Positions 45,777-47,577 of a DNA stretch of 64,000 nt are shown one piece after another (position 1 is the stretch's first letter; the number at the start of each line of letters is the position of its first letter). This DNA comes from Escherichia phage a48. A program made the position numbers and the translations under genes. The notes beneath the pieces were generated by a model. That model saw only the letters and a list, made by a program, of their open reading frames with translations, was not told the origin of the DNA and did no database searches. The stretch lies in the sequence record OQ067375.1, one strand, 5' to 3'.

Positions 45777-45804
45777 TAAAAAGCCCCGACCTTTTGGTCG
45801 GGGC
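45777..45804 (-). terminator. rho-independent terminator at the end of the tRNA/stable-RNA transcription unit
   Basis: Hairpin gccccgacc-ttttg-gtcggggc followed by a U-run on the minus transcript. Confidence 0.6.
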
Positions 45805-45809
45805 TAAGC

Positions 45810-46120
45810 CTTGCGGCAACCTTGTCGGGGTTCCACCTGCTAAGGCAAGTGTTTGTACGAAACGCCGGGATTCGAACCCGGTTATTAAGTAGTTGACGCT
45901 ACTCAATATTTTTAAAAGGCCATATCTCGACCATATCCGAACGTTCCGTCAAAAACGCTACTCGGCTTATGGCAAAGATATTTCCTCGAATCGATAATTC
46001 GGTGCGCCGTTTCTGCTGTGATATAAGGGGACATTAACAAAACATAAAGATTTATTAATGCCAGTCCTTAAACAGGGAACATCAGTCCGACGACTTGCCG
46101 GTAGCGACCCGGCTTCTTGT
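45810..46120 (-). ncRNA. non-coding region downstream of tRNA-Arg, candidate stable RNAs (T4 species 1/2-like)
   Basis: No ORF on either strand; contains tRNA-like T-arm CCGGGTTCGAATCCCGG (minus sense) and ends at a hairpin terminator. Confidence 0.35.
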
Positions 46121-46121
46121 C

Positions 46122-46197
46122 TGGTCGAGGCAGTAGGGATCGAACCTACGACCCAGGACTTAGAAGGTCCTTGCTCTTCCTTCTGAGCTATGCCCCG
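46122..46197 (-). tRNA. tRNA-Arg (anticodon UCU), CCA encoded
   Basis: Hand-folded cloverleaf: acceptor CGGGGCA/TGCCTCG, D-stem GCTC/GAGC, anticodon loop CTTCTAA, T-loop TTCGATC. Confidence 0.9.
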
Positions 46198-46200
46198 TAA

Positions 46201-46866
46201 TTAAAATTTCATTTTTCGACCTTTAAACCATCCTTCTGGAATTGGGTCAGTTTTCTTAATACGTTTAGAAACTTTTTCATCTAATGAATGAATCCACATC
46301 ATACCAAATTGGGAATTCTTTTCACCTTTCTGGTGATTATTTTTAGCGTGAATTTCTTTCATTTTATTAATAGTTTCAAGAGTATGATGCTTATTTAAAA
46401 ATCTGCTATTATTTAAAAATTTTTCCTTGTATTCAGGAGTTGACCATAAACGTTTAAATACATTTGAACCATTTTGACGATATTTTTCTTGAAGTAAAAT
46501 ATCATTTTTAAAACGTGACTTAAACGATTTAGCTCCTTTTAAACTAGCGTCTTTCTTCTGATTTAGCATCTCAGGAATATTTATATGATCCCATCCACCT
46601 TCACCGCCAAGTTTTAAATTATACACATCTGGTCTATTTAAAAACTCTTCTGTGACAATATTTTTCTCGGCTTCAAGCATAGATTCTTTATCATCAAAAT
46701 ATTCTAATATTTCTTTAGAAAAATTTTCTATACCATACCGGTCTTGGGCTCTTTTTAATAATTTACCAGAACCCATATATCCATCATCTAAATTTTCGGT
46801 AGAATGCACACCAATATAAATTTTATTATTAATTTTATTTGTTATTTTATAAAGATAAAAATGCAT
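46201..46866 (-). CDS. segB: GIY-YIG homing endonuclease (SegB-like) inside the tRNA cluster
   Basis: 222 aa from MHFYLYKITNKINNKIYIGVH...YMGSG (GIY-YIG motifs); ORF track's longer start would overlap the upstream tRNA. Confidence 0.8.
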   Translation of the reverse strand: MHFYLYKITNKINNKIYIGVHSTENLDDGYMGSGKLLKRAQDRYGIENFSKEILEYFDDKESMLEAEKNIVTEEFLNRPDVYNLKLGGEGGWDHINIPEMLNQKKDASLKGAKSFKSRFKNDILLQEKYRQNGSNVFKRLWSTPEYKEKFLNNSRFLNKHHTLETINKMKEIHAKNNHQKGEKNSQFGMMWIHSLDEKVSKRIKKTDPIPEGWFKGRKMKF

Positions 46867-46912
46867 ATCAGTCCTTAATAAAGAACTGAGCGTCTCACGA
46901 CGAGTCATAAAT

Positions 46913-46999
46913 TGGTGGGGAGTGGTGGAGTCGAACCACCCGAGTCGCAATGACAATGGATTTACAGTCCACACCGCTACCTCTACGGGATAACTCCCC
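46913..46999 (-). tRNA. tRNA-Tyr (anticodon GUA), class II with long variable arm, CCA encoded
   Basis: Hand-folded: acceptor GGGGAGT/ACTCCCC (7 bp), anticodon stem-loop GTGGA-CTGTAAA-TCCAT, long variable arm, T-arm GGTGG-TTCGACT-CCACC. Confidence 0.7.
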
Positions 47000-47008
47000 T
47001 AATTAATT

Positions 47009-47085
47009 TGGTGACCCAGACCAGATTTGAACTGGTAACCTTTCCCTTATGAGGGGACTGCTGCTAACCATTGAGCTACAGGGCC
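47009..47085 (-). tRNA. tRNA-Ile (anticodon CAU; Met assignment not excluded), CCA encoded
   Basis: Anticodon loop CTCATAA, T-arm ACCAG-TTCAAAT-CTGGT; one acceptor-stem mismatch. Confidence 0.75.
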
Positions 47086-47086
47086 T

Positions 47087-47162
47087 TGGTGCTGATTGAC
47101 GGAATCGAACCGCCGACGTCCTCATTACAAGTGAGGTGCTCTACCTACTGAGCTAAATCAGC
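47087..47162 (-). tRNA. tRNA-Thr (anticodon UGU), CCA encoded
   Basis: Minus-sense GCTGATTTAGCTCAGTAGGTAGAGCACCTCACTTGTAATGAGG...GGTTCGATTCC...CACCA. Confidence 0.9.
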
Positions 47163-47164
47163 AA

Positions 47165-47251
47165 CGGAGGCGATAGGATTTGAACCTATGAGTCGCCGGA
47201 GCGACTGCCGGTTTTCAAGACCGGTGCATTAAACCACTCTGCCACGCCTCC
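47165..47251 (-). tRNA. tRNA-Ser (anticodon UGA), class II, CCA not encoded
   Basis: Minus-sense GGAGGCGTGGCAGAGTGG...CCGGTCTTGAAAACCGG...GGTTCAAATCC; 2-nt spacer to tRNA-Thr. Confidence 0.9.
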
Positions 47252-47253
47252 AG

Positions 47254-47327
47254 TCTCCGTGGCAGGATTTGAACCTACGACATTCTGCTCCCAAAGCAGA
47301 CGCTCTACCAAACTGAGCTACACGGAG
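47254..47327 (-). tRNA. tRNA-Pro (anticodon UGG), CCA not encoded
   Basis: Minus-sense CTCCGTGTAGCTCAGTTTGGTAGAGC...TCTGCTTTGGGAGCAGA...GGTTCAAATCC. Confidence 0.9.
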
Positions 47328-47337
47328 TAAATTAAAT

Positions 47338-47411
<74 letters not shown>

Positions 47412-47416
47412 AAATT

Positions 47417-47503
47417 TGGTGCGAGAAGTGGGACTCGAACCCACAAGGAAATCATTCCGCAGCATTTTAAGTGCTGTGCCTTTACCAATTTGACCATTCT
47501 CGC
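47417..47503 (-). tRNA. tRNA-Leu (anticodon UAA), class II, CCA encoded
   Basis: Minus-sense GCGAGAATGGTCAAATTGGTAAAGGCACAGCACTTAAAATGCTG...GGTTCGAGTCC...CACCA, matches T4 tRNA-Leu. Confidence 0.9.
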
Positions 47504-47504
47504 G

Positions 47505-47577
47505 CTGGGAATAAAGGACTCGAACCTTTGCATCTAGCAGTCAAAGCGCTATGCCTTACCAACTTGGCTAATTCCCA
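47505..47577 (-). tRNA. tRNA-Gln (anticodon UUG), CCA not encoded
   Basis: Minus-sense TGGGAATTAGCCAAGTTGGTAAGGC...GCTTTGACTGC...GGTTCGAGTCC; abuts tRNA-Leu. Confidence 0.9.

Follow-up and report, generated by a model that had tools for sequence, protein, structure and literature searches.

The window, that is, the whole 64,000-nucleotide stretch of Escherichia phage a48 DNA that was analysed (OQ067375.1), carried a tRNA-Tyr(GUA) gene on its minus strand (46913-46999). By analogy with its counterparts in T6 and T5-family phages, this gene is probably functional: it belongs to the regular set of the T-even tRNA cluster, and it would replenish tRNA-Tyr cut by PtuAB and be open to amplification by the homing endonuclease SegB. 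Such a locus would be a clean example of a counter-defence phage tRNA paired with a homing endonuclease able to amplify it. The gene is already known: it is annotated in GenBank, it has been mapped in T-even phages, T2L among them, since at least 2008 (PMC2330249), and its function in T6 was tested and dissected in 2026 (PMC13096335). The window itself matters little in this respect, its gene being an ordinary and already explained one. The only item that may be new was an insertion of two nucleotides ahead of the D-stem, conserved in this phage-restricted family of tRNA-Tyr genes.

Identity and structure of the tRNA-Tyr gene

ARAGORN, run on the whole window, returned nine tRNA genes, one of them with the anticodon gta and assigned to tRNA-Tyr at 46913-46999 (minus strand), the exact coordinates at which the original prediction had placed a tRNA-Tyr(GUA) between tRNA-Ile and segB. 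The gene was 87 nt long, of class II, and present in a single copy, without tandem amplification; its RNA-sense sequence was GGGGAGUUAUCCCGUAGAGGUAGCGGUGUGGACUGUAAAUCCAUUGUCAUUGCGACUCGGGUGGUUCGACUCCACCACUCCCCACCA. The acceptor stem had 7 bp, all Watson-Crick (GGGGAGU/ACUCCCC, with G1-C72), and the discriminator A73 and the CCA were both part of the gene itself. The anticodon stem had 5 bp (GUGGA/UCCAU), with covariation among relatives, and closed a loop of 7 nt (CU-GUA-AA, with U33, G34-U35-A36 and a purine at 37). The T-arm was canonical (GGUGG-UUCGACU-CCACC). The variable arm had 15 nt (UGUCAUUGCGACUCG) and a GUC/GAC stem of its own, which in relatives took the forms GCC/GGC, GCU/AGC and GUCA/UGAC. 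The perfect 7-bp acceptor stem, the long variable arm and the encoded CCA that had been described earlier were all present. The cloverleaf had also been called well-formed, which was true of the acceptor, anticodon, T and variable arms but not of the D-arm, which was non-standard and preceded by a connector of four nucleotides.

The score of tRNA-Tyr against the Rfam family RF00005 was 30.3 bits, a marginal pass at a gathering score of 29, and far below the scores of the other eight tRNAs of the window (54-74 bits). The tRNA-Sec model scored higher on the same gene (35.4 bits) but stayed below its own cut-off. The minimum-free-energy fold of the 87 nt was not a cloverleaf (z-score -1.49), such folding being often uninformative for tRNAs.

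Compensatory changes were found in the acceptor, anticodon and T stems among 59 distinct relatives, with several Watson-Crick types per pair, and all seven acceptor pairs were kept by compensation. A73 was invariant (62 of 62 distinct relatives), as were the identity elements for tyrosyl-tRNA synthetase (TyrRS) and the anticodon loop across the phage family. The maintenance of stems by compensatory change points to selection on the RNA itself. Judged from these sequence comparisons, the window tRNA-Tyr is a real, selected tRNA, far beyond chance.

The four-nucleotide connector and the origin of the family

tRNA-Tyr lacked the standard 2-nt link (positions 8-9) that joins acceptor stem and D-stem. 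In its place stood the connector UAUC (46989-46992, minus strand), directly before the D-stem CCGU/GCGG; the last 2 nt of UAUC were extra relative to a standard tRNA according to the Rfam alignment, the relatives and a register test. ARAGORN drew the D-arm as UCCC/GCGG with a C.C mismatch, and the covariance model paired CCGU with GCGG and shifted the acceptor stem by two positions. In the register test on 59 distinct sequences, CCGU/GCGG was paired in 59 of 59, partly by construction given that three of the four D-stem pairs were fixed in the extraction pattern, and the third pair of the ARAGORN register was formed in 0 of 59. The one D-stem pair that the extraction pattern left free changed from C-G to U-A, and one contig of a metagenome-assembled genome (MAG) added A-U.

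The relatives were drawn from a phage database, E. coli plasmids and IMG/VR. The IMG/VR pattern constrained only the half from the anticodon to the T-arm and left the 5' half free; it was found at 120 or more loci, and the layout with the 4-nt connector was kept in 118 of the 120 loci listed. The common layout was a 7-bp acceptor stem, UA (or a close variant) plus two variable nucleotides, CCGU (or CUGU), the D-loop, and GCGG (or GCAG). The D-loop of the relatives was of the canonical type A-R-N-G-G-N-A. The same connector occurred in Tequatrovirus, Vequintavirus, Felixounavirus, T5-like and Klebsiella phages, and in phage contigs binned with Firmicutes and Bacteroidota.

The low RF00005 score of tRNA-Tyr was accounted for by an acceptor stem and a D-stem joined by four rather than two nucleotides. 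The peculiar connector is a trait of the whole phage tRNA-Tyr family and is no argument against the identity of the gene as a tRNA. Its conservation may explain why covariance-model annotation nearly misses the family, and the connector could merit a structural look. No description of the two extra nucleotides was found in a shallow search of the literature. It is rather unlikely that this family, which is almost confined to phages and extends over several bacterial phyla, carries in the two additional nucleotides of variable sequence that separate position 9 from CCGU/GCGG a feature that is both undescribed and of consequence. If it did, it would add a small new point on phage tRNA design, and the insertion might alter the recognition of tRNA-Tyr by host tRNA-targeting nucleases or modification enzymes while recognition by TyrRS is kept.

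The E. coli tRNA-Tyr genes (tyrU, tyrT/V) shared with the window gene the anticodon loop, A73, G1-C72, the class II arm and GUCA at the PtuAB cut site; unlike it, they had a 2-nt connector, a 3-bp D-stem and a shorter variable arm, and the identity was 58.6% (tyrU). A sensitive blastn search of 5426 complete E. coli genomes gave no chromosomal match to the phage tRNA-Tyr. An origin as a recent copy of the host gene was rejected on the low identity to tyrU and on this lack of chromosomal matches. In 269 of the same 5426 genomes, plasmids matched at a total of 273 places with 88-93% identity. One example, NZ_CP024264 (5921-6471), was a phage-plasmid that encoded DnaB, a primase and a ligase and carried a block of tRNAs in the order Asn-Tyr-Thr-Ser.

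A scan for the 3' half of the family in one genome for each of 185,579 bacterial and archaeal species gave five matches, all of them on MAG or draft-assembly contigs (Acetatifactor, Ruminococcus, Erysipelotrichaceae, Hymenobacter and a goat-gut bacterium). Four were each part of a block comprising 4-22 tRNA genes; the fifth was the sole tRNA in 8 kb. The five contigs were read as putative phage or prophage DNA. With these distributions the family looks phage-borne and horizontally shared. One of the five contigs carried two adjacent tRNA-Tyr genes.

Gene cluster, distribution and segB junctions

The nine tRNA genes of the window formed a cluster at 46122-47577, all on the minus strand, in the transcription order Gln, Leu, Gly, Pro, Ser, Thr, Ile(CAU), Tyr, a 666-nt ORF (segB) and Arg. 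The genes for Gln(UUG), Leu(UAA), Gly(UCC), Pro(UGG), Ser(UGA) and Thr(UGU), in this order of transcription, occupied 47087-47577. tRNA-Ile(CAU) (47009-47085), labelled Met by ARAGORN, equalled T4 tRNA-Ile except for its encoded CCA. tRNA-Tyr lay 9 nt downstream of it and 46 nt upstream of the segB ATG (46866). tRNA-Arg(UCU) (46122-46197) was of the RB18/RB27-type allele with G3.U70, not of the T4/T6/PST allele. In its acceptor stem the window had the G3.U70 wobble and RB27 had A3-U70; G3.U70 is the main identity element of alanyl-tRNA synthetase (AlaRS), and possible mischarging of this tRNA-Arg might merit a look.

[quoted passage not shown] Window SegB matched the proteins of T6 and Yersinia phage PST at 100% identity; its identity to T4 SegB was 94.6%. 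A 9-bp hairpin (46868-46889, minus strand; UCAGUUCUU-UAUU-AAGGACUGA), found by a scan for terminator-like structures and from the sequence, held the segB Shine-Dalgarno AAGGA in its 3' arm, just before the ATG. This hairpin resembled the translational occlusion known from other T4 homing endonuclease genes.

Downstream of tRNA-Arg, homologues of rnaD (46000-46120) and rnaC (45856-45994), both on the minus strand, were located by alignment to the annotated RB27 and T4 genes. Agreement for rnaD was 121 of 122 aligned columns with RB27 and 102 of 121 with T4, and for rnaC 137 of 139 with either phage; neither homologue had an Rfam family. A strong terminator-like hairpin (45782-45805, minus strand; 10 bp, 8 of them G-C, then a U run) lay downstream of rnaC, and rnaD and rnaC are the end of the tRNA transcription unit. 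A scan for sigma-70 promoters gave sites no more numerous than in shuffled sequence, and none above background beside tRNA-Tyr, which suggests that it shares the transcript of the other cluster genes, as in T4.

The 87-nt tRNA-Tyr query matched 1341 phage records, 509 of them at 95% identity or more and 84 at 99% or more; the top matches listed were identical, and many matching records annotated the gene as tRNA-Tyr. The window gene differed from those of T6, RB27 and RB18 by 1 nt (86/87), from that of T2 by 2 nt (85/87) and from that of PST by 3 nt. T4 (NC_000866) had exactly the eight tRNAs named for it in the original prediction (Arg, Ile, Thr, Ser, Pro, Gly, Leu and Gln) and no tRNA-Tyr, a lack also stated explicitly in the literature (PMC13096335), and its segB began 41 nt after tRNA-Ile. 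The suggestion of a lineage-specific gain next to the endonuclease gene was not supported, tRNA-Tyr being present in T2, T6, RB18, RB27, PST and hundreds of other Tequatrovirus records, with and without segB. Relatives also occurred in Vequintavirus, Felixounavirus, T5-like and Klebsiella phages and in phage-plasmids.

The clusters without segB were those of RB27 (Gln Leu Gly Pro Ser Thr Met Tyr Asn Arg) and T2 (Gln Leu Gly Pro Ser, one ORF, Met Tyr Asn Arg). RB18 (Gln Leu Gly segB Ser Thr Ile Tyr Asn His Arg) had segB in a different slot. In the window and in PST (... Thr Ile Tyr segB Arg), and in T6 (... Thr Met Tyr segB Arg, without Pro and Ser), segB occupied the Asn slot. T4 and PP01 (... 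Ile segB Arg) had neither Tyr nor Asn. The full T4-type Ile-segB junction without Tyr was found in 22 records and its spacer-plus-segB part in about 100, an estimate based on entries taken at even intervals from the list. The Tyr-segB junction was found in 27 phage records at 80% query coverage or more, and the window-type Ile-Tyr junction in 25; several hundred records had another CAU tRNA before Tyr or non-segB sequence after it. By these counts, the Tyr-bearing state is the common one and the Tyr-less arrangement of T4 and PP01 a minority, and the "normal" tRNA complement of T-even phages is poorly represented by the T4 reference genome.

The T6 locus (Chihara et al., Nat Commun 2026, PMC13096335) shared with the window the order of CAU tRNA, tRNA-Tyr, segB and Arg. 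It differed from the window in U40 as against C40, which gives G30.U40 and G30-C40, respectively, in the anticodon stem, in lacking the tRNA-Pro and tRNA-Ser that the window keeps, and in its tRNA-Arg allele. In the segB-less phages T2/T2L and RB27 (Brok-Volchanskaya et al. 2008, PMC2330249), tRNA-Tyr likewise followed directly after a CAU tRNA, but tRNA-Asn, the preferred SegB cut site, stood after Tyr, in the slot where the window has segB. T4 shared the other eight tRNA specificities, segB, rnaD and rnaC with the window, in the same order; it differed in the lack of tRNA-Tyr, in a tRNA-Ile without encoded CCA, and in the 5' flank and first five codons of segB and the tRNA-Arg allele.

Homology between the window and RB27 spanned tRNA-Tyr and ended right after CCAATTT, beyond which RB27 continued with tRNA-Asn and the window with the segB leader. 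In the comparison of T4 with window positions 46866-47012, homology ended right after the tRNA-Ile discriminator, which leaves T4 tRNA-Ile without an encoded CCA; the T4 segB leader and the first five codons differed. The T-arm sequence recognised by SegB is GGTTCRANTCC, and cleavage mostly falls directly behind a CCAR at the 3' terminus of a tRNA gene; the enzyme prefers the tRNA-Asn of segB-less phages and also cuts the T2L tRNA-Tyr gene (PMC2330249). The T-arm and 3' end of the window tRNA-Tyr (GGTTCGACTCC...CCAA) fitted the consensus GGTTCRANTCC...CCAR. The published SegB SITE-seq motif RAWTSGAAC was not enriched in the window (9 vs 6.9 expected), and none of its occurrences fell in tRNA-Tyr.

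Both homology break points lay at SegB cut positions, from which we infer cassette replacement: in the T6/window type the segB cassette would have taken the place of Asn, and in the T4 type that of Tyr, Asn and the CCA of Ile. This reading was taken from the junctions rather than from a phylogenetic reconstruction, and a lineage-specific gain of tRNA-Tyr appears less likely than it. The addition of CCA to T4 tRNA-Ile is a classical requirement, and it may be a scar of the same segB cassette event that also removed tRNA-Tyr from T4.

To the right of segB the window was a mosaic, with a T6-type segB beside a tRNA-Arg of RB18/RB27 type, which places a recombination break point between the segB stop codon and tRNA-Arg. 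The segB-Arg junction of the window was found at 80% query coverage or more in 89 records. The final segB codons (TGGTTTAAAGGTCGAAAAATGAAA, 46201-46240, minus strand) resembled the T-arm region of RB27 tRNA-Asn (TGGTTATAGGTTCGAATCCTATCA), and this likeness may be the remnant of a disrupted SegB target site.

Proposed counter-defence role and its alternatives

The Septu system Ec-B88 consists of the PtuA ATPase and the PtuB HNH nuclease, and upon T6 infection E. coli tRNA-Tyr is cut at C48/A49 in the variable arm; the T6 tRNA-Tyr is cut as well, at C48 (PMC13096335). Over-expression of T6 tRNA-Tyr restored T6 plating on Septu, and deletion of the tRNA-rich region sensitised T6 (PMC13096335). 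T6 escape mutants carried tandem 718-bp repeats of tRNA-Tyr plus a 3'-truncated segB, an amplification that depended on catalytically active SegB (PMC13096335). T4, with SegB present and tRNA-Tyr absent, cannot escape Septu, and the T6 tRNA-Tyr was described as relatively unstable, a single copy giving intermediate protection only (PMC13096335). The tRNA-Tyr of T5-family phages neutralises retron-Eco7, whose PtuAB degrades tRNA-Tyr; rescue depends on the anticodon and on a strong promoter, and over-expressed host tRNA-Tyr also works (Azam et al. 2024, PMC11555353). The need for the anticodon and the rescue by host tRNA-Tyr argue for replenishment rather than for resistance of the molecule.

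The T5-family gene was 77% identical to that of the window and shared its 4-nt connector and the replenishing role; unlike it, it belongs to a large region rich in tRNA genes that has a strong promoter of its own, and it has no segB-driven amplification. The variable arm of the window gene was identical to those of the T6 and T5-like tRNA-Tyr, the cleavage-site C48 included. With the same variable arm as in T6 and an identical SegB, the T6 mechanism is the best-supported candidate for the window phage. The proposal that a phage tRNA may replace host tRNAs cut by anticodon-nuclease defences was borne out in its first part, the replacement of a defence-cut host tRNA having been shown for the T6 gene (1 nt different); its second part needs correction, as PtuAB cuts the variable arm and not the anticodon.

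By this mechanism, tRNA-Tyr would be transcribed with the other tRNAs on a minus-strand transcript and excised by host processing enzymes, and its encoded CCA would make CCA addition unnecessary. The elements recognised by bacterial TyrRS (A73, G34-U35, the long variable arm and G1-C72) would allow charging with tyrosine and so enlarge the tRNA-Tyr pool of the infected cell. When the PtuAB of Septu or retron-Eco7 cuts the variable arm of tRNA-Tyr on infection and translation stalls, the phage copy would refill the pool. Breaks made by SegB may lead to tandem amplification of the tRNA-Tyr-segB unit and a higher dose, as observed in T6. The gene would be an old and widely shared member of the cluster, left intact in the window phage by a segB cassette that sits in the tRNA-Asn slot.

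That tRNA-Tyr only supplies the late demand for tyrosine codons, its anti-defence effect being incidental, is unlikely, although a supply role is the classical proposal for T4 tRNAs. Tyr made up 4.74% of the codons in 72 window ORFs (79% of them UAU), usage in E. coli being about 2.8%, and a benefit independent of defence is conceivable. The requirement for the anticodon in the T5-family rescue fits supply too, as it indicates that tRNA-Tyr acts in translation (PMC11555353). However, the codons read by the other eight tRNAs end in A and are rare in the host (UUA, AGA, AUA, GGA, CCA, UCA, ACA, CAA), whereas Tyr(GUA) duplicates an abundant host tRNA for the same two codons; T4 grows well without it, and the direct phenotypes reported are specific to defence (PMC13096335).

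Still less probable is that tRNA-Tyr has little value of its own and was kept through co-conversion with segB and the targeting of tRNA genes by SegB. Homing by SegB does convert flanking tRNA genes at nearly 100% efficiency (PMC2330249), the region is the mosaic described above, and the slot of segB differs among RB18, T6 and T4. Yet tRNA-Tyr was equally conserved in the segB-less T2 and RB27 and in unrelated phage families without an adjoining segB, with all its stems kept by compensatory change, a sign of purifying selection on the tRNA in lineages free of segB. The invariance of the TyrRS identity elements and the anticodon loop across the family makes it scarcely credible that the molecule is a decoy which soaks up the nuclease and is not used in translation, its odd D-arm reflecting lost function. 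The low covariance-model score and the non-standard connector would agree with a decoy, as would the cutting of T6 tRNA-Tyr at C48 like that of the host, for which the authors mention "decoy or supplement" (PMC13096335); but an anticodon change in the SP15 homologue abolishes rescue, and host tRNA-Tyr behind a strong promoter rescues equally well (PMC11555353). Replenishment of cut tRNA-Tyr is the reading that we prefer.

T2 is resistant to Septu (PMC13096335). Its tRNA-Tyr allele was no better paired than that of T6, with U40 in both, so that factors beyond tRNA-Tyr matter for resistance. The candidate explanation that the C40 allele of the window is the T2 allele was rejected on the same position. 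[quoted passage not shown]

The eight tRNAs common to T4 and the window had U34 or CAU anticodons, reading A-ending codons, and the variable extras of T-even clusters (Tyr GUA, Asn GUU and His GUG) all belonged to the GUN group, whose members carry queuosine in E. coli. Tyr and Asn adjoined also in Felixounavirus, phAPEC8-like phages, Klebsiella phages and phage-plasmids. The set of Tyr, Asn and His extras hints at a shared, possibly nuclease-related, reason for carriage.
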